The notes under the pieces: model-generated | What the model was told of the DNA's origin: nothing | The model's input: the letters and a program-made list of their open reading frames with translations, nothing else | The model's database searches: none | Part shown: positions 10,795 to 63,250 of the stretch, in pieces | Layout: every line of letters begins with the position of its first letter | Numbering within the stretch: position 1 is the stretch's first letter | Position numbers and translations under genes: made by a program | Assembly (NCBI GenBank): GCA_964016885.1 | Contig: OZ024741.1 | Coordinates: 33,232,001 to 33,296,000, forward strand | Reading direction: 5' to 3' | Source: Eledone cirrhosa | Taxonomy: Eukaryota | Length of the DNA: 64,000 nucleotides

Positions 10795-11130
10795 CCGAGA
10801 ATAAGTAAGAGACGTAGTCACTGCTTTAAAACTCATAGCGAATGGTCTTCTAAATGTTTTTAATTAAACATACAGTATATTGCCAAATATACTATATATA
10901 CATTCATGTATACATCGCTATTTCAGAGCACCAATCCTAATACCTAATTTTTACTGGACCGGCAACCGCTCTGTGTAATCAGCTCTGGAATTCTATAAGA
11001 ATCCAGCCTCTATGATTCTCGATGAAGGCAACTGAGTGTGTGGTCTTGATAAACGCTCACAAGCTAGAAACAGACTGTTTGTCGGCCGCTCTCTGTTGTT
11101 TTTGCCGAGAATAAGTAAGTGACATAGTCA
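10795..11130 (+). mobile_element. Retrozyme-like element, 310-nt monomer plus 26-nt terminal redundancy (copy 1)
   Basis: Direct repeat CCGAGAATAAGTAAG.GAC.TAGTCA at 10795-10820 and 11105-11130; contains an HHR; homologous to, but permuted relative to, 62936-63250. Confidence 0.75.
11015..11112 (+). ncRNA. Type I hammerhead ribozyme, U3-A8 variant (stem II partly decayed)
   Basis: GGTC-TTGATAA-ACGCTCACAAGCTA-GAA-ACAGA CTG TTTGT-C-GGCC with extended stem I; predicted cleavage GUC after 11083. Confidence 0.65.
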
Positions 11131-11270
11131 GATGATTGAACGTCTGAAAGTATATGCTTTCCTTATGCATATTAACGGCTGAGCAGCCTAATTTGCATAT
11201 CGAGTGAGTTAATCGGCCGTTAATATGCATAAGGAAAGTATATACTTTCAGACGTTGAATCATCTGGCAG
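11130..11270 (+). promoter_or_regulatory. Candidate compact snRNA/H1-type promoter (octamer + TATA-like), present as an inverted duplication
   Basis: ATTTGCAT at 11191-11198 (on the inverted arm); TATA-like AG(C/T)ATATACTTTCA, then 14 nt, then TGGCAGG; same motifs and spacing at 17343-17422. Confidence 0.4.
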
Positions 11271-11332
11271 GAAGGTATACGATGCTGACGATAGCTAATA
11301 AGCTTGAAACTAGTACATCGTTCCTTTGCCAG
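11264..11332 (+). ncRNA. Type I hammerhead ribozyme with palindromic stem III
   Basis: CTGGCA-GGAA-..-CGATG-CTGACGA-T AGCT AATA AGCT T-GAA-ACTAGT-A-CATCG-TTCC-TT-TGCCAG; predicted cleavage GUA after 11315. Confidence 0.75.
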
Positions 11333-11339
11333 TGTTAAA

Positions 11340-11552
11340 CAAAAGGGCAACGATGGTTGCTAAACACTGTACGGCTTAATTCGGGATTTTTGTTTACAAA
11401 AACACCGAGCATTATAATAAATGTTCGGTAAATCCATACGTACATATATATATGTGTGCATGTATGTATATATATATACATACTACTGTACGTCTGTATA
11501 CATATATGTATGTACGTATACATACTTATATATATGTATGTACGTATACATA

Positions 11553-11608
<56 letters not shown>

Positions 11609-11758
11609 TATGTATAAGTACATACATATATACATACATGCACACATATATTATGTACTAATGGATTTACTGAACATTTATTATAATGCTCGGTGTTTTT
11701 GTAAACAAACATCCCGAATTAAGCCGTACAGTGTTTAGCAACCATCGTTGCCCTTTTG
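11340..11758. repeat. Long inverted repeat (family X, tail-to-tail) around (TA)n
   Basis: ~105-bp arms AAAAGGGCAACGATGGTTGCTAAAC... / ...GTTTAGCAACCATCGTTGCCCTTTT. Confidence 0.85.
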
Positions 11759-27967: not shown

Positions 27968-28150
27968 CGAAGAAAGTGTGGTAAGGAACCAGGTGGATCA
28001 TAACGCACCAGAGTACTTGATACTTTGGGTAGTAGAGTGGGTAATAGGAAAATGTTCAGGACCCCGACGGCAGAGCTCAAGCCGTTTCGACGGCTATATC
28101 TGGACAGTCCGGCTTGAGCTCTGCCGTCGGGGTCCTGAACATTTTCCTAT
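27966..28150 (-). mobile_element. Family H element with fold-back (41-bp arms)
   Basis: Arms 28044-28084 and 28110-28150; between (TA)n tracts. Confidence 0.8.
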
Positions 28151-28163
28151 ATATATATATATA

Positions 28164-28335
28164 TAGAAGTGGTAACACAACAGTTAGTTCACCATACCGA
28201 GAACAATTGTTTCACCTGAAACAATTCTTCTCGGTATGGTGAACTAACTGTTGTGTTACCACTTCTACCTAACTCGTCCCTAGGACTGAGTGCTCTACTA
28301 CAACGGATATTACCTTCCCGTGTTCTACCTCTCTC
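28164..28335 (+). mobile_element. Family G element with fold-back (51-bp arms), HHR 3' half at the apex
   Basis: Arms 28164-28214 and 28217-28267; homologue at 57978-58128. Confidence 0.8.
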
Positions 28336-36998: not shown

Positions 36999-38804
36999 CT
37001 ACAGGCTGAGGTAGAGAGAAGGCCCATTCACACGGGCCATTCTCGCAACTTTCACCCACCTTTCATAAAACTGGCTGGAGTGGAGCACCTCTCTCTCCAT
37101 CCTGATCCTTCTTCCGAAATGGTATCGGAAGAAAAGGACCAGTTGTTGGCCGGAGAGAAAGGTGTCCGACCTCAGCCCTTTCAGACGCCTCCGCCATATA
37201 GCCTCTTTTACCATGGCTATTACACAGAGGAAGACCGCCTCTCCTTCATTTTTGAAGGGGGGAGGCGGCTTGACCGTTACAATGGACTCGGTGGTCAACC
37301 TAATTGGTCCCACCCGTGACAGCAGTTGTTCGACATAGCCCCACAGATCGGCAACGCCCGGGCAGTGCACCAATGCGTGCGCGACGGATTCCTCGTCGCG
37401 CACGCATCTGGGACAGATCTTTTTCGAGGGGTCCCTACCCGGGCGCCCGTGTCTGTAGAGATTATCCCGAACGGGCAGAGGCCCTCGGTAGCACTGCCAG
37501 GCCAAGGACTTCTGGAAGTTGTCCATAGGTCCCGGGCCGAAAGTCCTACCGAATAGACTGGCCAGTTCGTCCTCCTCCATGCCTAGGTTTTCTCCGAGGG
37601 CGTCGTCGCACCCGCTAACCACCAGCCCTCTATAGAATGACGAGGTGGATTCTCCACTGACAGTCGGGTCCGCCTGCCAGAGAGCCGTGAGCGCCAGGGC
37701 ACACTCGGTGTGCCAGTCGCCCAGTTTTCTCGGTCTTTGCTTCACCCAGGACTGCAGCTCGGTGAGCGAGACGAGCCTCGGGAAGGTTCGCCTCACAAAC
37801 GGGGCCCACACCGGTTGACCGGTGAGGAATACCTGGAGGTGCCTTAGCCTCAATGCGTGTTTACGCATTTTTAGCCACGGCATCCCCAGCCCTCCTTTCA
37901 AAGGGTGTTGACAGCAGATGGATCTCCTCACCAGAGGAGACCTCTTTTTCCAAAGGAAATAAAAGAGGGCGCGCTCCATTTTGGCAAGGATCTCACCCGG
38001 GCAAGGTCCGACAGTCAAGCGGTAATAGATGACGGACGCTATGTAAGCGTTCGCCACCTCCGCCCGACCTTTCAGGGATAGTTTGCACTCGGCCCACTTC
38101 TGGGTCAGTGCAAATACCCTATTCGTCACCTCACCCCAGTTTTTCTCCACCTGGAGGTCCGGTCCGAACCAGACCCCAAGCAACTTCACCGGGCCCTCCG
38201 TCCACCGTCCGACGATACCGTCGCACGACATCGCTTTGCCCCTCCACTCGCCGAGTTGCAAAGCGACTGACTTGTCCCGGTTCAGCTTAGCCCCTGTCAA
38301 CCTTTCGTACTCCTCCAGTAAGGTGCCGATTGCCTCGATTTCCGAGGTGGTCGACACCATTACTGTTACGTCATCGGCATAGGCCGACACCACTTTGCGC
38401 AATCCCGGTTCCAAAGGGATGCCCTGCAACAACTCCAACTTCCGCAGTAGTGGCTCGAGAGCCAATACATACAGAAGGGAGGAGAGAGGGCATCCCTGTC
38501 GGATGGAGCGGGTGATTTCGAATGGCTCCGAAAGGTAGCCGTTCACCTTGACTCTAGAGCAGATGCGGCTGCTGTGCATGGCAGTGATCCAGCCCCTGAA
38601 AACGGGTCCGAACCCAGCCGCCGCTAGCACCGCATCCAGGTAACCATGGTCCACCCTATCGAACGCTTTAGGCTGATCTAAATTTATCAGGGCCCCACCA
38701 AATCCGGGTTCGTTCCCAACCCTCTCTATGATGTATCGCATGAGGTGGAGGTTGTCGTGGATGGACCTGGACGGGATAGCGCATGTCTGCGCATCTCCCA
38801 CCAT
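36999..38804 (-). pseudogene. Tx1 ORF2 segment 3: reverse transcriptase core + zinc knuckle
   Basis: LDQPKAFDRVDH, RQGCPLS, AYADDV, LGVWF, GGLG, CPRCVRDEESVAHALVHC. Confidence 0.92.
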
Positions 38805-39298
38805 GACCCCACGACAAGCGCCAACCTCTTCGCTAACACCTTGGCCAAAATCTTTAACTCTGCATTTAGCAGATTTATGGGCCTAAAATTACTAATGTCA
38901 TCCCCCTTGTTCTCGTCCTTTCTCACTAGCGAGACTACGCCCTTGGTCACAGAACAGGGAATTCTCCCGTTCTGTTGCCAGTTGCAGTAGACCGCCTCGA
39001 GGAGATCGGGGAACAAGTCCGGCATATTAATATATAGTTCGTAGGGCAGACCATCGAGCCCTGGAGATTTGCGTTTGCCGCATAGGCTCAGCATGTCCCC
39101 TATTTCAGCAGCTGAGATCGGCCCGTCGCAGGACCTCGCCTCCCTGTCCGAAAGACGCGGCAGGCCGTCGAGGTATGGACCGAAATCCACATTCCCAACA
39201 GGCCCCCCACCCCTCCCGAACAATTGATCAAAGTACCTTTGAAAGGCCTCGCACATTTGCTTAGGTTCAAGGATCAACCGTCCATCCTGGTCTCGCAA
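38726..39298 (-). pseudogene. Tx1 ORF2 segment 2: RT N-terminal region
   Basis: KSPGLDGLPYELY, NFRPINLLNAELKILAKVLAKRL. Confidence 0.9.
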
Positions 39299-39331
39299 AG
39301 ACCGGATAGTGGATTTAATCCCACTTTTCGC

Positions 39332-40404
39332 TTATGTCACGCGGGCCCAGCTAACAGCTTTGGTCCCCTCGTTTCCCAGAGCACGTATTTTGCTTCGGAC
39401 AACGCAGCTTTCGTGGTTCAAGGCCGTTCTCGACGCTTGCACTCTGGCCACGTTGCCGCTTCTCATTGCCTCTTCAACATTAACTACCAACTCCCTTTCC
39501 TTCCTATTTCTATCTGAGGCTAACTCCTTACTAACTCCTATTGAAACTACTCTAATCTCTCTTTTTAGAGAGCCCCACCACCTGCTGTTGACGATGGCGC
39601 CCGTCAACCGCTCCTTAACTAAGGTTCTAATCCGGTCCCTGTAAGCTCTACTTGCCGGTAAGGACAAGTTGAGCTTCCAGTAACCGGGTCCCTGCCTATG
39701 CGTTCTATCAAGGTGGACTACGCAGGTCACTAACTTGTGGTCTGAATAGCCCACCATGAGCATTTTTGGACAACTTAAAAAGTCCCTATCCTTAATTCTA
39801 ACTAAGAACCTATCTAGGTACGATCTAGATTGACCACTGTTATTTGACCAAGTCCAGGTTGGCACAGTCGGAAAATCTAGTCGGTATCTATCGGCCAGGT
39901 CAAATCGGCCGATTAACCCCTTGAGGCTGTTACACCCTCCTCTATCGGGACATGCCCCTACATAGTCCCAACGTGCATCTAGGATACCATTCCAGTCCCC
40001 CACTAAAACCAAGGAGAGGGACGTCCCTAGAAAAGACTCCACACGATGGAAGAAGTCCGACCGCATTGCCCCAAAGGGGGCGTATACGGCGACAAGCCTA
40101 AAAGCTGCGCCTTCACCACTGCCAAGGTCCAGAACCACGAGTTGACCCTCCGGGTCCAAGTGTACCGTCTGTGTTGCGAGACCCAGATGTTTTTGCAGCA
40201 GAACGACAACCCCACTCCCACCTCCGGGCTGACAGAGAGATGTGTGCATCTCAAATTCATCAAAGGTCGGGGCTAGCTGTCGCACGCTGCTGATCCGGGC
40301 CTCGCAAATAACCATCACATTTATATATTGTGACCTGAGGTCATTTAGAAGTTTAGCTTGCTTCCAAGGTGAGCCCAGGCCACGCGCATTTAGACAACCT
40401 ACTC
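39332..40404 (-). pseudogene. Tx1 ORF2 segment 1: apurinic-like endonuclease
   Basis: CLNARGL, ICE, VYAP, GDWN, YLDRFLV, SDHK, GPGYWKLN. Confidence 0.9.
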
Positions 40405-40646
40405 TTTCGTGGCTATTATGCAAAAACATTACATCATAGAGATGCAGTATTTTTGTCAGGTTTGCCGACTTATCAAGAGGATACCGCATTAAGAGTTTCA
40501 AAACACGTCCGTAGGACGCGAGATAGAATCCCGAAAGGCGGAGCGGGAACTTATCACGTGATACAGCGTCAAGAAACAGAGCTAAGCTTCTTACAACCAA
40601 GAGAAAAAATACTGCATCTGTATGTTTTTGCATAATAGCCACGAAA
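40405..40646. repeat. Inverted-repeat element abutting the Tx1 5' end
   Basis: TTTCGTGGCTATTATGCAAAAACAT..AGATGCAGTATTTTT and its reverse complement at 40605-40646. Confidence 0.75.
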
Positions 40647-40787
40647 CTACGTAGTCGAGGATAATGAAGGAATGTAGGCATATTATATCTTTTTATTTAT
40701 ATCTAATGTTTCTTCTTTCTTTATAATGTATTATATAGCTCTGATATTGAATCAATTTAATCCATTCAGATTATTTTCTCCCTATTA

Positions 40788-41214: not shown

Positions 41215-41934
<720 letters not shown>

Positions 41935-42675: not shown

Positions 42676-45600
42676 CAGGCAGGCTGACATGAAGGTAACC
42701 AGGTAGACAGTCTGACATGCAGGCAGGCTGACATGAAGGTAACCAGACAGACAGGCTGACATGCAGGCAGGCTGACATGAAGGTAACCAGGTAGGCAGGC
42801 TGACATGCAGGCAGGCTGACATGAAGGTAACCAGGTAGGCAGGCTGACATGCAGGCAGGCTGACATGAAGGTAACCAGGTAGACAGTCTGACATGCAGGC
42901 AGACTGACATGAAGGTAACCAGGTAGACAGTCTGACATGCAGGCAGACTGACATGAAGGTAACCAGGTAGACAGTCTGACATGCAGGCAGGCTGACATGA
43001 AGGTAACCAGGTAGGCAGGCTGACATGCAGGCAGACTGACATGAAGGTAACCAGGTAGACAGTCTGACATGCAGGCAGGCTGACATGAAGGTAACCAGGT
43101 AGACAGTCTGACATGCAGGCAGGCTGACATGAAGGTAACCAGGTAGACAGTCTGACATGCAGGCAGGCTGACATGAAGGTAACCAGGTAGGCAGTCTGAC
43201 ATGCAGGCAGACTGACATGAAGGTAACCAGGTAGACAGTCTGACATGCAGGCAGGCTGACATGAAGGTAACCAGGTAGGCAGGCTGACATGCAGGCAGGC
43301 TGACATGAAGGTAACCAGGTAGGCAGGCTGACATGCAGGCAGGCTGACATGAAGGTAACCAGGTAGACAGTCTGACATGCAGGCAGGCTGACATGAAGGT
43401 AACCAGGTAGGCAGGCTGACATGAAGGCAGGCTGACATGAAGGTAACCAGGTAGACAGTCTGACATGCAGGCAGGCTGACATGAAGGTAACCAGACAGAC
43501 AGTCTGACATGCAGGCAGGCTGACATGAAGGTAACCAGGTAGACAGTCTGACATGCAGGCAGGCTGACATGAAGGTAACCAGGTAGGCAGGCTGACATGC
43601 AGGCAGGCTGACATGAAGGTAACCAGGTAGACAGTCTGACATGCAGGCAGGCTGACATGAAGGTAACCAGACAGACAGTCTGACATGCAGGCAGGCTGAC
43701 ATGAAGGTAACCAGGTAGACAGTCTGACATGCAGGCAGACTGACATGAAGGTAACCAGGTAGACAGTCTGACATGCAGGCAGACTGACATGAAGGTAACC
43801 AGGTAGGCAGTCTGACATGCAGGCAGACTGACATGAAGGTAACCAGGTAGACAGTCTGACATGCAGGCAGGCTGACATGAAGGTAACCAGGTAGACAGTC
43901 TGACATGCAGGCAGGCTGACATGAAGGTAACCAGGTAGGCAGGCTGACATGCAGGCAGGCTGACATGAAGGTAACCAGGTAGACAGTCTGACATGCAGGC
44001 AGGCTGACATGAAGGTAACCAGGTAGACAGTCTGACATGCAGGCAGACTGACATGAAGGTAACCAGGTAGACAGTCTGACATGCAGGCAGACTGACATGA
44101 AGGTAACCAGGTAGGCAGGCTGACATGCAGGCAGGCTGACATGAAGGTAACCAGGTAGGCAGGCTGACATGCAGGCAGACTGACATGAAGGTAACCAGGT
44201 AGACAGTCTGACATGCAGGCAGGCTGACATGAAGGTAACCAGGTAGGCAGGCTGACATGCAGGCAGGCTGACATGAAGGTAACCAGGTAGGCAGGCTGAC
44301 ATGCAGGCAGGCTGACATGAAGGTAACCAGGTAGACAGTCTGACATGCAGGCAGGCTGACATGAAGGTAACCAGGTAGGCAGGCTGACATGAAGGCAGGC
44401 TGACATGAAGGTAACCAGGTAGACAGTCTGACATGCAGGCAGGCTGACATGAAGGTAACCAGACAGACAGTCTGACATGCAGGCAGACTGACATGAAGGT
44501 AACCAGGTAGGCAGTCTGACATGCAGGCAGGCTGACATGAAGGTAACCAGGTAGGCAGGCTGACATGCAGGCAGGCTGACATGAAGGTAACCAGGTAGGC
44601 AGGCTGACATGCAGGCAGGCTGACATGAAGGTAACCAGGTAGGCAGTCTGACATGCAGGCAGACTGACATGAAGGTAACCAGGTAGACAGTCTGACATGC
44701 AGGCAGGCTGACATGAAGGTAACCAGGTAGGCAGGCTGACATGCAGGCAGGCTGACATGAAGGTAACCAGGTAGACAGTCTGACATGCAGGCAGGCTGAC
44801 ATGAAGGTAACCAGGTAGGCAGGCTGACATGCAGGCAGGCTGACATGAAGGTAACCAGGTAGACAGTCTGACATGCAGGCAGGCTGACATGAAGGTAACC
44901 AGGTAGGCAGTCTGACATGCAGGCAGACTGACATGAAGGTAACCAGGTAGACAGTCTGACATGCAGGCAGACTGACATGAAGGTAACCAGGTAGACAGTC
45001 TGACATGCAGGCAGGCTGACATGAAGGTAACCAGGTAGACAGTCTGACATGCAGGCAGGCTGACATGAAGGTAACCAGGTAGGCAGGCTGACATGCAGGC
45101 AGGCTGACATGAAGGTAACCAGGTAGACAGTCTGACATGCAGGCAGGCTGACATGAAGGTAACCAGGTAGGCAGGCTGACATGCAGGCAGGCTGACATGA
45201 AGGTAACCAGGTAGACAGTCTGACATGCAGGCAGGCTGACATGAAGGTAACCAGGTAGACAGTCTGACATGCAGGCAGGCTGACATGAAGGTAACCAGGT
45301 AGGCAGGCTGACATGCAGGCAGGCTGACATGAAGGTAACCAGGTAGACAGTCTGACATGCAGGCAGGCTGACATGAAGGTAACCAGGTAGGCAGTCTGAC
45401 ATGCAGGCAGACTGACATGAAGGTAACCAGGTAGACAGTCTGACATGCAGGCAGACTGACATGAAGGTAACCAGGTAGACAGTCTGACATGCAGGCAGGC
45501 TGACATGAAGGTAACCAGGTAGACAGTCTGACATGCAGGCAGGCTGACATGAAGGTAACCAGGTAGGCAGGCTGACATGCAGGCAGGCTGACATGAAGGT

Positions 45601-48600
45601 AACCAGGTAGACAGTCTGACATGCAGGCAGGCTGACATGAAGGTAACCAGGTAGGCAGGCTGACATGCAGGCAGGCTGACATGAAGGTAACCAGGTAGAC
45701 AGTCTGACATGCAGGCAGGCTGACATGAAGGTAACCAGGTAGGCAGGCTGACATGCAGGCAGGCTGACATGAAGGTAACCAGGTAGGCAGGCTGACATGC
45801 AGGCAGGCTGACATGAAGGTAACCAGGTAGACAGTCTGACATGCAGGCAGGCTGACATGAAGGTAACCAGGTAGGCAGGCTGACATGCAGGCAGGCTGAC
45901 ATGAAGGTAACCAGGTAGGCAGTCTGACATGCAGGCAGACTGACATGAAGGTAACCAGGTAGACAGTCTGACATGCAGGCAGGCTGACATGAAGGTAACC
46001 AGGTAGGCAGGCTGACATGCAGGCAGGCTGACATGAAGGTAACCAGGTAGACAGTCTGACATGCAGGCAGGCTGACATGAAGGTAACCAGGTAGGCAGGC
46101 TGACATGCAGGCAGGCTGACATGAAGGTAACCAGGTAGACAGTCTGACATGCAGGCAGGCTGACATGAAGGTAACCAGGTAGGCAGGCTGACATGCAGGC
46201 AGGCTGACATGAAGGTAACCAGGTAGACAGTCTGACATGCAGGCAGGCTGACATGAAGGTAACCAGGTAGGCAGGCTGACATGCAGGCAGGCTGACATGA
46301 AGGTAACCAGGTAGACAGTCTGACATGCAGGCAGGCTGACATGAAGGTAACCAGGTAGGCAGGCTGACATGCAGGCAGGCTGACATGAAGGTAACCAGGT
46401 AGACAGTCTGACATGCAGGCAGGCTGACATGAAGGTAACCAGGTAGACAGTCTGACATGCAGGCAGGCTGACATGAAGGTAACCAGGTAGACAGTCTGAC
46501 ATGCAGGCAGGCTGACATGAAGGTAACCAGGTAGACAGGCTGACATGCAGGCAGGCTGACATGAAGGTAACCAGGTAGGCAGGCTGACATGCAGGCAGGC
46601 TGACATGAAGGTAACCAGATAGGCAGGCTGACATGCAGGCAGGCTGACATGAAGGTAACCAGGTAGACAGTCTGACATGCAGGCAGGCTGACATGAAGGT
46701 AACCAGGTAGGCAGGCTGACATGCAGGCAGGCTGACATGAAGGTAACCAGGTAGACAGTCTGACATGCAGGCAGGCTGACATGAAGGTAACCAGGTAGGC
46801 AGGCTGACATGCAGGCAGGCTGACATGAAGGTAACCAGGTAGACAGTCTGACATGCAGGCAGGCTGACATGAAGGTAACCAGGTAGACAGTCTGACATGC
46901 AGGCAGACTGACATGAAGGTAACCAGGTAGGCAGGCTGACATGCAGGCAGGCTGACATGAAGGTAACCAGGTAGACAGTCTGACATGCAGGCAGGCTGAC
47001 ATGAAGGTAACCAGGTAGACAGTCTGACATGCAGGCAGGCTGACATGAAGGTAACCAGGTAGGCAGGCTGACATGCAGGCAGGCTGACATGAAGGTAACC
47101 AGGTAGGCAGGCTGACATGCAGGCAGGCTGACATGAAGGTAACCAGGTAGACAGTCTGACATGCAGGCAGGCTGACATGAAGGTAACCAGGTAGACAGTC
47201 TGACATGCAGGCAGGCTGACATGAAGGTAACCAGGTAGACAGTCTGACATGCAGGCAGGCTGACATGAAGGTAACCAGGTAGACAGTCTGACATGCAGGC
47301 AGGCTGACATGAAGGTAACCAGGTAAGCAGTCTGACATGCAGGCAGGCTGACATGAAGGTAACCAGGTAGACAGTCTGACATGCAGGCAGGCTGACATGA
47401 AGGTAACCAGGTAGACAGTCTGACATGCAGGCAGGCTGACATGAAGGTAACCAGGTAGACAGTCTGACATGCAGGCAGGCTGACATGAAGGTAACCAGGT
47501 AGACAGTCTGACATGCAGGCAGGCTGACATGAAGGTAACCAGGTAGACAGTCTGACATGCAGGCAGGCTGACATGAAGGTAACCAGGTAGGCAGGCTGAC
47601 ATGCAGGCAGACTGACATGAAGGTAACCAGGTAGGCAGTCTGACATGCAGGCAGGCTGACATGAAGGTAACCAGGTAAGCAGTCTGACATGCAGGCAGAC
47701 TGACATGAAGGTAACCAGGTAGGCAGGCTGACATGCAGGCAGGCTGACATGAAGGTAACCAGGTAGACAGTCTGACATGCAGGCAGGCTGACATGAAGGT
47801 AACCAGGTAGACAGTCTGACATGCAGGCAGGCTGACATGAAGGTAACCAGGTAGACAGTCTGACATGCAGGCAGGCTGACATGAAGGTAACCAGGTAAGC
47901 AGTCTGACATGCAGGCAGGCTGACATGAAGGTAACCAGGTAGGCAGGCTGACATGCAGGCAGGCTGACATGAAGGTAACCAGGTAGACAGTCTGACATGC
48001 AGGCAGACTGACATGAAGGTAACCAGGTAGACAGTCTGACATGCAGGCAGGCTGACATGAAGGTAACCAGGTAGGCAGGCTGACATGCAGGCAGGCTGAC
48101 ATGAAGGTAACCAGGTAGGCAGGCTGACATGCAGGCAGGCTGACATGAAGGTAACCAGGTAAGCAGTCTGACATGCAGGCAGGCTGACATGAAGGTAACC
48201 AGGTAGGCAGTCTGACATGCAGGCAGGCTGACATGAAGGTAACCAGGTAGACAGTCTGACATGCAGGCAGGCTGACATGAAGGTAACCAGGTAGGCAGGC
48301 TGACATGCAGGCAGGCTGACATGAAGGTAACCAGGTAGGCAGGCTGACATGCAGGCAGGCTGACATGAAGGTAACCAGGTAGACAGTCTGACATGCAGGC
48401 AGGCTGACATGAAGGTAACCAGGTAGACAGTCTGACATGCAGGCAGGCTGACATGAAGGTAACCAGGTAGACAGTCTGACATGCAGGCAGGCTGACATGA
48501 AGGTAACCAGGTAGGCAGTCTGACATGCAGGCAGGCTGACATGAAGGTAACCAGGTAGACAGTCTGACATGCAGGCAGGCTGACATGAAGGTAACCAGGT

Positions 48601-51600
48601 AGGCAGGCTGACATGCAGGCAGGCTGACATGAAGGTAACCAGGTAGACAGTCTGACATGCAGGCAGGCTGACATGAAGGTAACCAGGTAGACAGTCTGAC
48701 ATGCAGGCAGGCTGACATGAAGGTAACCAGGTAGGCAGGCTGACATGCAGGCAGGCTGACATGAAGGTAACCAGGTAGGCAGGCTGACATGAAGGCAGGC
48801 TGACATGAAGGTAACCAGGTAGGCAGGCTGACATGCAGGCAGGCTGACATGAAGGTAACCAGGTAGGCAGTCTGACATGCAGGCAGGCTGACATGAAGGT
48901 AACCAGGTAGACAGTCTGACATGCAGGCAGGCTGACATGAAGGTAACCAGGTAGGCAGGCTGACATGCAGGCAGGCTGACATGAAGGTAACCAGGTAGGC
49001 AGGCTGACATGAAGGCAGGCTGACATGAAGGTAACCAGGTAGGCAGGCTGACATGCAGGCAGGCTGACATGAAGGTAACCAGGTAGGCAGGCTGACATGC
49101 AGGCAGGCTGACATGAAGGTAACCAGGTAGGCAGGCTGACATGAAGGCAGGCTGACATGAAGGTAACCAGGTAGACAGTCTGACATGCAGGCAGGCTGAC
49201 ATGAAGGTAACCAGGTAGACAGTCTGACATGCAGGCAGGCTGACATGAAGGTAACCAGGTAGGCAGGCTGACATGCAGGCAGGCTGACATGAAGGTAACC
49301 AGGTAGACAGTCTGACATGCAGGCAGGCTGACATGAAGGTAACCAGGTAGGCAGGCTGACATGCAGGCAGGCTGACATGAAGGTAACCAGGTAGGCAGGC
49401 TGACATGAAGGCAGGCTGACATGAAGGTAACCAGGTAGGCAGGCTGACATGCAGGCAGGCTGACATGAAGGTAACCAGGTAGGCAGGCTGACATGCAGGC
49501 AGGCTGACATGAAGGTAACCAGGTAGGCAGGCTGACATGAAGGCAGGCTGACATGAAGGTAACCAGGTAGACAGTCTGACATGCAGGCAGGCTGACATGA
49601 AGGTAACCAGGTAGGCAGTCTGACATGCAGGCAGGCTGACATGAAGGTAACCAGGTAGACAGTCTGACATGCAGGCAGTCTGACATGAAGGTAACCAGGT
49701 AGACAGTCTGACATGCAGGCAGGCTGACATGAAGGTAACCAGGTAGACAGTCTGACATGCAGGCAGGCTGACATGAAGGTAACCAGGTAGGCAGGCTGAC
49801 ATGCAGGCAGGCTGACATGAAGGTAACCAGGTAGGCAGGCTGACATGAAGGCAGGCTGACATGAAGGTAACCAGGTAGGCAGGCTGACATGCAGGCAGGC
49901 TGACATGAAGGTAACCAGGTAGGCAGGCTGACATGCAGGCAGGCTGACATGAAGGTAACCAGGTAGGCAGGCTGACATGAAGGCAGGCTGACATGAAGGT
50001 AACCAGGTAGACAGTCTGACATGCAGGCAGGCTGACATGAAGGTAACCAGGTAGACAGTCTGACATGCAGGCAGGCTGACATGAAGGTAACCAGGTAGGC
50101 AGGCTGACATGCAGGCAGGCTGACATGAAGGTAACCAGGTAGACAGTCTGACATGCAGGCAGACTGACATGAAGGTAACCAGGTAGACAGTCTGACATGC
50201 AGGCAGGCTGACATGAAGGTAACCAGGTAGGCAGGCTGACATGCAGGCAGGCTGACATGAAGGTAACCAGGTAGACAGTCTGACATGCAGGCAGGCTGAC
50301 ATGAAGGTAACCAGGTAGGCAGGCTGACATGCAGGCAGGCTGACATGAAGGTAACCAGGTAGGCAGGCTGACATGAAGGCAGGCTGACATGAAGGTAACC
50401 AGGTAGGCAGGCTGACATGCAGGCAGGCTGACATGAAGGTAACCAGGTAGGCAGGCTGACATGCAGGCAGGCTGACATGAAGGTAACCAGGTAGGCAGGC
50501 TGACATGCAGGCAGACTGACATGAAGGTAACCAGGTAGGCAGGCTGACATGCAGGCAGGCTGACATGAAGGTAACCAGGTAGGCAGGCTGACATGAAGGC
50601 AGGCTGACATGAAGGTAACCAGGTAGACAGTCTGACATGCAGGCAGGCTGACATGAAGGTAACCAGGTAGGCAGTCTGACATGCAGGCAGGCTGACATGA
50701 AGGTAACCAGGTAGACAGTCTGACATGCAGGCAGGCTGACATGAAGGTAACCAGGTAGGCAGGCTGACATGCAGGCAGGCTGACATGAAGGTAACCAGGT
50801 AGACAGTCTGACATGCAGGCAGGCTGACATGAAGGTAACCAGGTAGGCAGGCTGACATGCAGGCAGGCTGACATGAAGGTAACCAGGTAGGCAGGCTGAC
50901 ATGCAGGCAGGCTGACATGAAGGTAACCAGGTAGGCAGGCTGACATGCAGGCAGGCTGACATGAAGGTAACCAGGTAGACAGTCTGACATGCAGGCAGGC
51001 TGACATGAAGGTAACCAGGTAGGCAGTCTGACATGCAGGCAGGCTGACATGAAGGTAACCAGGTAGACAGTCTGACATGCAGGCAGGCTGACATGAAGGT
51101 AACCAGGTAGGCAGGCTGACATGCAGGCAGGCTGACATGAAGGTAACCAGGTAGACAGTCTGACATGCAGGCAGGCTGACATGAAGGTAACCAGGTAGGC
51201 AGGCTGACATGCAGGCAGGCTGACATGAAGGTAACCAGGTAGACAGTCTGACATGCAGGCAGGCTGACATGAAGGTAACCAGGTAGGCAGGCTGACATGC
51301 AGGCAGGCTGACATGAAGGTAACCAGGTAGGCAGGCTGACATGCAGGCAGGCTGACATGAAGGTAACCAGGTAGGCAGGCTGACATGCAGGCAGGCTGAC
51401 ATGAAGGTAACCAGGTAGGCAGGCTGACATGAAGGCAGGCTGACATGAAGGTAACCAGGTAGACAGTCTGACATGCAGGCAGGCTGACATGAAGGTAACC
51501 AGGTAGACAGTCTGACATGCAGGCAGGCTGACATGAAGGTAACCAGGTAGGCAGGCTGACATGCAGGCAGGCTGACATGAAGGTAACCAGGTAGGCAGGC

Positions 51601-51656
51601 TGACATGCAGGCAGGCTGACATGCAGGCAGGCTGACATGAAGGTAACCAGGTAGGC
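42676..51656. repeat. 44-bp satellite/minisatellite, about 204 copies (~9 kb)
   Basis: AGGCTGACATGAAGGTAACCAGGTAG(A/G)CAG(T/G)CTGACATGCAGGC. Confidence 0.98.
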
Positions 51657-57812: not shown

Positions 57813-57937
57813 ACACCTGTATATATATATATACGTACACGCACACACACACACACACACGCATATATATATATATATATATACACACACACCTGTACGC
57901 ATATATATATATATATATATACACACACACCTGTATG

Positions 57938-57981
<44 letters not shown>

Positions 57982-58009
57982 TGGTTACACAACACTTAGT
58001 TCACCATAC

Positions 58010-58047
58010 CGAGAACAATTGTTTCACCTTAGCGGATCCTCAGCTCG
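58010..58047 (-). ncRNA. Minimal type I hammerhead of family G
   Basis: Minus strand CGAG-CTGAGGA-TCC GCTAA GGT-GAA-ACAATTGT-T-CTCG. Confidence 0.65.
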
Positions 58048-58136
58048 TAATGTAACCACTTTTACCTAACTCGTCCCATGGACTGAGTGCTCTACCACTA
58101 CGGATATTAACTTCCAGTGTTCTACCACTATATATA

Positions 58137-62534: not shown

Positions 62535-62769
62535 ATACATGAGTATGTACACGCACATACATATATGTATACAGACGTACAGTAGTATGTATATATATAT
62601 ATATACACATACATGCACACATATATATATATATGTACGTATGGATTCACCGAACATTTATTATAATGCTCGGTGTGTTTGTAAACAAACATCCCGTATT
62701 ACGGCTTAATACGGGATGTTTGTTTACAAACACACCGAGCATTATAATAAATGTTCGGTGAATCCATAC

Positions 62770-62809
<40 letters not shown>

Positions 62810-62876
62810 ATGTATGTATATATATATACATACTACTGTACGTCTGTATACATATATGTATGTGCGTGTACATACT

Positions 62877-62880
<4 letters not shown>
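62535..62880. repeat. Long palindrome (family X, head-to-head)
   Basis: Centre CCCGTATTA-CGGCT-TAATACGGG; ~165-bp arms homologous to 11370-11530. Confidence 0.85.
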
Positions 62881-62935
<55 letters not shown>

Positions 62936-62937
<2 letters not shown>

Positions 62938-63245
62938 TAGAATTGGAGCTCTGAAATAGCAATATATATATATGGATGTATATATAATGTATTTTGCAAT
63001 ACACTTTATGCTTAATTAAAAGCATTTTGAAGACCGTATGCTATTGTTTTAGAGTAGTGACAAATTCACTTACTTTAATCTCAGCAAACAGGGGAGATAA
63101 GCCGACAAGGTCTTGTTTCGCTTTTGTTGAAGCTTATCAAGGCTAACTACCCCTCCTGTCTACTGAGATTACTGATGTTATATTCTTATAGAATACTAGT
63201 AAATAATCAGGAGCTGATTATACAGAACGATTGCTGGTCAGGCAG

Positions 63246-63250
<5 letters not shown>
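62936..63250 (-). mobile_element. Retrozyme-like element copy 2 (circular permutation of 10795-11130)
   Basis: Same blocks in different order; flanked by (TA)n on both sides. Confidence 0.75.
63077..63170 (-). ncRNA. Complete type I hammerhead ribozyme, U3-A8 variant
   Basis: AATCTCAGTAGACAGG..AGCC-TTGATAA-GCTT CAACAA AAGC-GAA-ACAA GACC TTGT-C-GGCT..CCTGTTTGCTGAGATT; predicted cleavage between 63104 and 63103. Confidence 0.8.

Follow-up and report, generated by a model that had tools for sequence, protein, structure and literature searches.

A hammerhead retrozyme family of Eledone cirrhosa with the insertion signature of Penelope-like elements

Two short, non-coding repeats located in the window (the whole 64,000-nt stretch of Eledone cirrhosa DNA that was analysed) belong, almost certainly, to a family of non-LTR retrozymes, and this family is very probably inserted into the genome by the machinery of Penelope-like elements (PLEs). 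In the reading that we consider likely, a PLE reverse transcriptase (RT)/endonuclease would insert the family by copying a single RNA monomer, probably a circular one. The furthest-reaching form of it, which could equally well prove right or wrong, is that of an active retrozyme with about 1,000 fresh insertions, each made by two Penelope RTs rolling from two fixed sites round one RNA circle. The window copies themselves are ordinary, being two decayed copies; it is the family that is unusually informative on mechanism.

Two models have been put forward for the re-entry of animal retrozymes into the genome, PLE reverse transcription of circles (PMC7229834) and DNA-level expansion (Li, Clavereau, Pollet 2026, bioRxiv 10.64898/2026.07.22.740005), and the present family separates them from sequence alone. 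For the in vitro PLE assay that is already established, it also offers a natural template of 310 nt with known start sites, with which the PLE tail, the inverted arm, the partial tandem, and the role of the ribozyme become testable. If rolling on a circle is true, the family would prove, directly from genomic DNA, that a viroid-like RNA undergoes rolling-circle retrotransposition, and this would suggest that the pseudo-LTRs, tails, and inverted arms of PLEs arise from circular templates as well. Searches of the literature, covering papers largely outside the subscription journals and neither Repbase nor supplements, listed neither a cephalopod retrozyme nor such a haplotype pattern per insertion.

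The window copies and their family

Copy 1 (10795–11130, plus strand) is a partial tandem of the old (O) subfamily, truncated at its 5' and 3' sides and comprising 1.08 units. It starts with block B (10795–10941, plus strand), the conserved 3' part of the unit with both fixed insertion ends inside, continues through block A (10942–11104, plus strand), and finishes with the first 26 nt of a second block B (11105–11130, plus strand), 24 of them identical to 10795–10820, which gives a 310-nt period. Coordinates, blocks, and period were as the original prediction had them, and the B-to-A junction, which might have been unique to this locus, turned out to be the ordinary unit junction of the family. 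The "tail" (10912–10941, plus strand), located between the two fixed 3' ends, is internal to the tandem here; mapped on copy 1, the N end falls at about 10912–10915 and the T end at 10941. In contigs from three runs of one sample, many sequences break off into (TA)n at 10912 and 10942, and these loose ends correspond to the two fixed ends. The type I hammerhead of copy 1 (11040–11089, plus strand; core at 11046–11052, cut predicted after 11083) has lost in stem II a pair kept by its relatives, with 3 bp left; with this stem weakened, the ribozyme is decayed and likely inactive. The best relatives of copy 1 are 82–91% identical (among 40 scored of 3,995 first-look candidates).

Copy 1 ends at 11130, a point that is not among the ends of the family, tail-to-tail with E2, a two-armed insertion (11129–11538, arms on both strands) of a second retrozyme-like family. 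The minus arm of E2 (11129–11220) is 3'-truncated and likewise stops short of E2's own ends; its plus arm (11213–11538) follows, with a minimal type I hammerhead (11280–11320, plus strand; cut predicted after 11315). A deletion between the two adjacent insertions is the simplest reading of this join. Since copy 1 is truncated against the E2 arm, the 26-nt repeat is a remnant, and its interpretation as a target-site duplication was rejected, as was the proposal that copy 1 had gone slightly more than once around, overshooting by 26 nt. E2 was also found at 11569–11758 and 62539–62879 of the window and at further loci (L370–L381); its tandem unit measures 429 nt (424 first-look candidates), its arms are head-to-head, and its 3' ends, fixed at two sites, lie at (TA)n with a spacing of about 60 nt. 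This second family is apparently unrelated to the family of copies 1 and 2.

Copy 2 (62936–63249, minus strand) is a single arm of the young (Y) subfamily that covers unit positions 6–317, i.e., about one monomer in the order A-B, as predicted, with a canonical T end at 62936 and (TA)n flanking both sides. Its type I hammerhead (63100–63144, minus strand; core at 63140–63134, cut predicted between 63104 and 63103) is intact, with perfect stems seated on a long outer stem, and the 111 nt of the long stem region fold with a z of -5.4. Against the Rfam model Hammerhead_HH9, copy 2 reached 24.5 bits (E 6e-4), short of the gathering score, which is 52. Three relatives gave no Rfam match at gathering level, the whole window returned only microsatellite miRNA noise among the matches listed, and the hammerhead was not recovered in minimum-energy folds of the isolated ribozymes of 61–66 nt (z -1.3 and -1.9).

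At both loci, the unit is non-coding and about 310–317 nt long, and it carries a type I hammerhead with a UUGAUAA core, GAAA, and a GUC site. The ribozyme type, the UUGAUAA core, and the GUC site had been correctly recognised from the start; pairing of the stems is perfect in copy 2 and weakened in stem II of copy 1. Similarly, the identity of some 80% estimated outside the ribozyme stems applies to block B (80%, 120/150 columns; BLAST E 1e-31), not to block A (61%, 103/169). The window copies are members of two subfamilies and, taken alone, no footprint of a circle: the circular permutation that had been read as one is the 5' truncation of a tandem plus the 3' truncation of copy 1. Both are truncated, older products of the insertion process proposed below.

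Other features of the window include a broken LINE (36999–40696, minus strand) with endonuclease-like and reverse-transcriptase-like frames, identified from motifs, a 44-bp satellite (42676–51627; about 203 copies, 96% match), and an inverted repeat of about 200 nt around (CT)n(TA)n(AG)n (41716–41925), where the Rfam miRNA matches are low-complexity noise.

The search with copy 2 in the 3.0 Gb assembly gave 1,422 first-look candidates, 38 of which were scored, with identities of 96–98%. Four homologous subfamilies (O, Y, C, and D) were distinguished on one scaffold, with unit periods of 310–321 nt and arrays of 1 to 27 units. A U3/A8 core is found in O (copy 1) and in Y (copy 2, period of 317 nt) and a canonical C3/G8 core in C, all three with a full stem III. 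Subfamily D (period of 310 nt, 64% identical to Y in register) carries a minimal hammerhead with a palindromic short stem III in the scaffold that holds full hammerheads in the other three. Exact ribozyme motifs numbered 173 plus 9 for Y and 1,566 for one ribozyme variant of D. As for tandem organisation, the cut site is crossed at least twice by 30 of 129 Y arms and once by each window copy, and 58 D arrays have at least three units.

A type I hammerhead is present per repeat unit (descriptor scan and covariation), and self-cleavage is predicted for the family. Among 23 hand-picked natural sequences of O, Y, and C type, 91% of 540 cells were paired, compared with at most 40% in slid controls, and 13 of the 24 hammerhead pairs showed two-sided changes, the cells being non-independent events and the structure having been drawn from the same 23 sequences. 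The catalytic 3-8 pair was U3-A8 in 17 of them and C3-G8 in 6, a paired swap of the core such as selection for activity would give. The monomer is well folded (circular MFE z -4.3 to -5.7), GC is under 50%, and LTR, PBS, and PPT are absent, the last two as judged from the layout. In all, the family shows each testable feature of metazoan non-LTR retrozymes, and the retrozyme family that had been predicted is borne out, with a conserved hammerhead and in thousands of copies.

Several other identities were discarded. A plant LTR retrozyme (type III hammerhead in LTRs, 4-bp TSD) was rejected on the type I topology and the lack of an LTR layout, and an autonomous PLE on the composition of the insertions, which consist of the ~310-nt units alone, with no ORF for RT and GIY-YIG. 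The window copies were also rejected as ends of a long coding element: the ends in this family are indeed fixed, but no coding element is attached to them. A further repeat with a full type I hammerhead, a D-like stem II, and ends at (TA)n was observed at L201:128–283, L058:3146–3260, and L024:1946–2060.

Insertion ends and Penelope-like elements

Insertion ends were mapped in a Y set selected only on a 40-mer of the ribozyme (all loci behind 9 matches and the first 100 of 173), which yielded 77 loci and 138 arms. The 3' ends of 64 arms lie at unit position 315–317 (T), those of 61 at 285–291 (N, within a TA run), and the remaining 13 elsewhere. Two fixed 3' sites, separated by about 26 nt, thus account for 125 of the 138 arms; measured downstream from the ribozyme cut, they lie at some 140 and 165 nt. 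The variable start points on a circle that had been proposed were rejected, as only the far (5') ends vary. A (TA)n run adjoins 62 of the 64 T ends, and the tail between the two sites measures about 26–30 nt in the family. Two arms were found head-to-head in 57 of the 77 loci, 45 of them combining N and T, and at most of these junctions the arms overlap by a few microhomologous bases or enclose a short insert. Arms had a median length of 1.0 unit, none exceeding 4.1 units, with two-arm totals of up to about 6 units. The same N and T ends were read by eye in 21 O and 18 C loci. Regarding D, 59 loci selected on their T ends included 47 with N and T, 7 with the second arm beyond the fetched stretch, and 5 single ones, and a partial tandem plus an inverted arm was present in 54 of the 59.

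The 5' ends of the Y arms are scattered round the unit, with no pile-up at the cut site itself (4 vs 2.8 expected in Y; 4 vs 4.7 in D) and an enrichment of about twofold 5–30 nt downstream of it (22/129 vs ~9 in Y; 20/133 vs 11 in D). This excess could be due to stalling at a hairpin or to trimmed ends of cut linear RNA. An apparent pile-up at unit position 1 was a filter artefact, as short extensions had been dropped.

This layout of two fixed ends and head-to-head arms is the insertion signature of PLEs. The published layout of these elements includes a partial tandem, an inverted truncated copy, a tail at one end, and (TA)n (Craig et al. 2021, bioRxiv 2021.04.23.441226), and the purified PLE protein of anole (PAc) uses two adjacent internal start sites, with extension on both strands (PMC11167929); the ends, arms, and target of the retrozymes match both. 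The PLEs of this genome, two families of which were measured, insert in the same manner as the retrozymes. The first, Hydra-type, family (61,972 first-look candidates; RT plus GIY-YIG, with the CxCX5C linker of the Hydra clade) carries a minimal hammerhead, a tail, and (TA)n ends. A second, younger family (RT plus GIY-YIG, 1,185 first-look candidates) behaves likewise, and we take it from its motifs to be "Neptune-like". The tails of these two families measure 35–66 nt. Since Pfam gave no match for the Hydra-type proteins and only a sub-threshold RVT_1 for the second family, motifs are the basis of the PLE assignments. In the window, the Hydra-type PLE is represented by short pieces of its 3' end at 57914–58052 and 28148–28267, the younger family shows long open frames and a tail of ~56 nt, and PLE loci of the genome include L062–L097, L238–L266, L181, L183, and L319, with further RT plus GIY-YIG families present.

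In addition to this common anatomy, fusions were detected. A second retrozyme arm is missing from 20 of the Y loci. In four of these (L107, L174, L040, and L154), a PLE 3' fragment lies head-to-head at the 5' end of the retrozyme, and in L107 the PLE arm bears its tail and the retrozyme arm the N end. Locus L138 is a retrozyme-PLE fusion in direct orientation, L130 and L168 are less clear fusions, and in L041 and L132 the retrozyme is joined to LINE-like pieces, the remainder of the 20 being next to (TA)n, other repeats, or unassigned DNA. Older retrozyme-PLE fusions were found in L002 and L196, the latter also direct. The fusions involve several PLE families, and these are raw counts from a genome where PLE debris is abundant. 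No readable fusion was found at the single-arm D loci, in one of which a PLE lies across an N gap. Regarding descent, no PLE pLTR homologous to the unit was found in the two PLE families compared in depth, in a genome that holds more families, and derivation from either of the two was rejected. On one RNA scaffold, hammerheads of the canonical, U3/A8, and minimal kinds would have replaced one another, and this scaffold may be mobilised by several PLE clades.

Haplotypes of subfamily D and the template of insertion

Subfamily D (loci L258 and L297–L369, e.g., G000 C1:36481500–36491400) presents 1,013 exact T ends fused to TA and arrays of up to 27 units that are 99.4–100% identical, and it is, to judge from its sequences, probably active now. 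For the analysis of variants, 60 of the first 100 listed ends were taken, L337 being dropped because its array was missed, and 11 of 16 earlier loci were added, leaving out L300 (less than one unit), L303 and L306 (gaps, likely duplication), and L046 and L118 (locus edge). Among the 70 D loci, 58 have at least three full units (580 units), and 52 of these arrays span both strands; the median length of the 125 complete arms is 3.3 units, and the longest reaches 27.

The 58 arrays correspond to 29 fixed haplotypes. In 51 of them, single-unit variants aside, no variant is limited to part of the units, and in the other seven a variant appears in some units only, one of these being an alignment artefact. 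Thirteen arrays hold a fixed variant absent from all the others, 11 of them with both arms, and private fixed variants run across both arms through all 18 units of L358 and all 17 of L369. In addition, 80 variants of single units were found. From the haplotype frequencies, the chance that two independently drawn arms match is about 8%. As a new variant fixed in all units of both arms points to a single-monomer template, the circle being the simplest such template, the counts favour the copying of one monomer at insertion, with arrays that would have been made at that moment. These counts are carried to the O and Y copies of the window by homology. A circular template is thus the best reading, as the prediction had held, but by way of the single-haplotype arrays of a younger relative and not of the window copies.

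A similar analysis in Y (100 loci) showed agreement of lineage columns within the same locus in 181/203 tandem and 251/287 inverted comparisons, versus 20,605/90,857 between loci. Rare Y variants gave an ambiguous picture, being common to all overlapping segments in 13 cases, to some in 18, and single in 473, and locus L149 is a mosaic; subfamily D was young enough to decide. The distance within and between loci (~2% vs 2.9%) was set aside as evidence, as later mutation dominates and it is not decisive.

The structure, the covariation, and the precedent of coral, mussel, and axolotl suggest that a tandem copy would be transcribed and that its hammerheads would excise monomers, to be ligated into circles of ~310 nt. 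From the target and the two-armed product, both observed, we infer a PLE protein that would cut a (TA)n site and prime from both DNA strands, two cDNAs beginning at the two fixed sites about 26 nt apart. Each of them would go from less than 1 to 27 turns round the same monomer, leaving no scar at the cut site, the observed lengths and the single haplotype being what points to a circular template. The last step, the head-to-head joining of the two cDNA ends, is seen in the insertions, where the arms meet mostly at microhomology of a few bases; in some of them one arm comes from PLE or LINE RNA instead.

The same PLE machinery could have used instead a long linear multimer that came from the transcription of an array already in place and was left uncut, with any circles as by-products, which we regard as unlikely. 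Such a template cannot fix a new variant in every unit, which is at odds with the 29 fixed haplotypes of the 58 arrays. Moreover, if both arms came from one linear multimer, copied from the same start, a difference inherited by one arm should recur in the unit of the same index in the other, and index-matched units of the two arms shared no sporadic difference in 46 of 47 loci (138 unit pairs). The exception is L308 (G000 C1:136718900–136726600), where the first two units of both arms carry one haplotype and the units after them another; this mirrored mosaic points to a composite multimer template there, and a simple monomer circle does not explain it. In vitro, the anole PLE also acts mainly on unprocessed RNA (PMC11167929), and the D arrays are long enough to act as mothers. 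In Y, two-arm totals that reach about 6 units where no arm exceeds 4.1 units speak against the multimer. The longer arms of D than of Y fit an uncut multimer as well: the longest arrays are those of D, whose minimal ribozyme is probably weak, which would also leave long uncut transcripts.

A slightly less probable template is one cut linear monomer, on which the PLE enzyme, related to telomerase, would jump repeatedly from the 5' end to the 3' end. At the DNA level, this is equivalent to a circle and accounts equally well for one haplotype per insertion, and template switches were seen (L138, L328, and L149), in addition to the excess of 5' ends just downstream of the cut site. End-to-end template jumps usually leave scars, as known from work on R2. 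In contrast, the crossings of the cut site were clean: among 636 D segments, the indels nearby amount to one 1-nt insertion, 2–4 nt downstream of the predicted cut and fixed in seven arrays (L310, L317, L338, L343, L346, L355, and L363), which is possibly a ligation-site variant. That 5' ends do not accumulate at the exact cut site also speaks against jumping.

The insertion of short monomers or dimers derived from PLE termini, followed by expansion at the DNA level through unequal crossover and conversion, is the model proposed for vertebrate retrozymes (bioRxiv 10.64898/2026.07.22.740005) and would fit a few variants present in adjacent or recurring units (L110, L175, L321, L341, and L361). 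We find it improbable here, as both inverted arms are long and have private variants in common (11 of 13 arrays), the arrays are nearly identical throughout with exact ends, and a variant in all units of one arm only was seen in a single array of the 58 (L361). Finally, that the homogeneity within arrays is a product of assembly or polishing is scarcely credible despite the N gaps or duplicated look of some loci (L303 and L306), as polishing would pull towards the genome-wide majority and not towards locus-private haplotypes on both strands, and the single-unit variants survive.

Comparison with known systems

Metazoan non-LTR retrozymes are known from coral, mussel, and axolotl (Cervera & de la Pena 2020, PMC7229834), and their features were also compared with PMC7761336. 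As in those described in PMC7229834, the family of Eledone has a non-coding tandem unit in the 150–450-bp range with a type I hammerhead and GC under 50%, a well-folded monomer without LTR, PBS, or PPT, and thousands of copies, and it shares its genome with PLEs that carry minimal hammerheads. Expression and circles were demonstrated for those retrozymes, whereas the Eledone family is known here from DNA. Mobilisation by PLEs and tandem cDNA from circles are presented in the available text of PMC7229834 as hypotheses, and its results and discussion, as far as that text goes, contain nothing on insertions that start at fixed sites, on a tail, on (TA)n as the target, on head-to-head arms, or on haplotypes per insertion.

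With PLEs of the Hydra and other C-terminal GIY-YIG clades, the family has in common the partial tandems, the inverted 5'-truncated copy, the tail at one end, the (TA)n target, the two adjacent internal start sites with extension of both strands, and a hammerhead in the terminal repeat (Craig et al. 2021; PMC11167929). Unlike PLEs, it has no ORF, and the entire unit of about 310 nt is repeated many times. Its tail is slightly shorter than the 30–40 nt of published PLEs (Craig et al. 2021), and the full stem III of O, Y, and C sets these subfamilies apart. Non-autonomous PLEs of the Chlamys type, such as MRC1, have their 3' sequence in common with the autonomous partner, and Chlamys elements are mostly devoid of hammerheads, according to the available text of Craig et al. 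(2021).

Like the vertebrate retrozymes (Li, Clavereau, Pollet 2026, bioRxiv 10.64898/2026.07.22.740005), the Eledone family seems to depend on PLEs and has units of similar sizes, organised from monomers to multimers. That work argues from co-occurrence and pLTR homology and invokes tandem expansion at the DNA level. In the present case, no homologous pLTR was found in the two PLE families compared, and the link is made by insertion anatomy and fusions; in contrast to that model, the D arrays look as if made at insertion.
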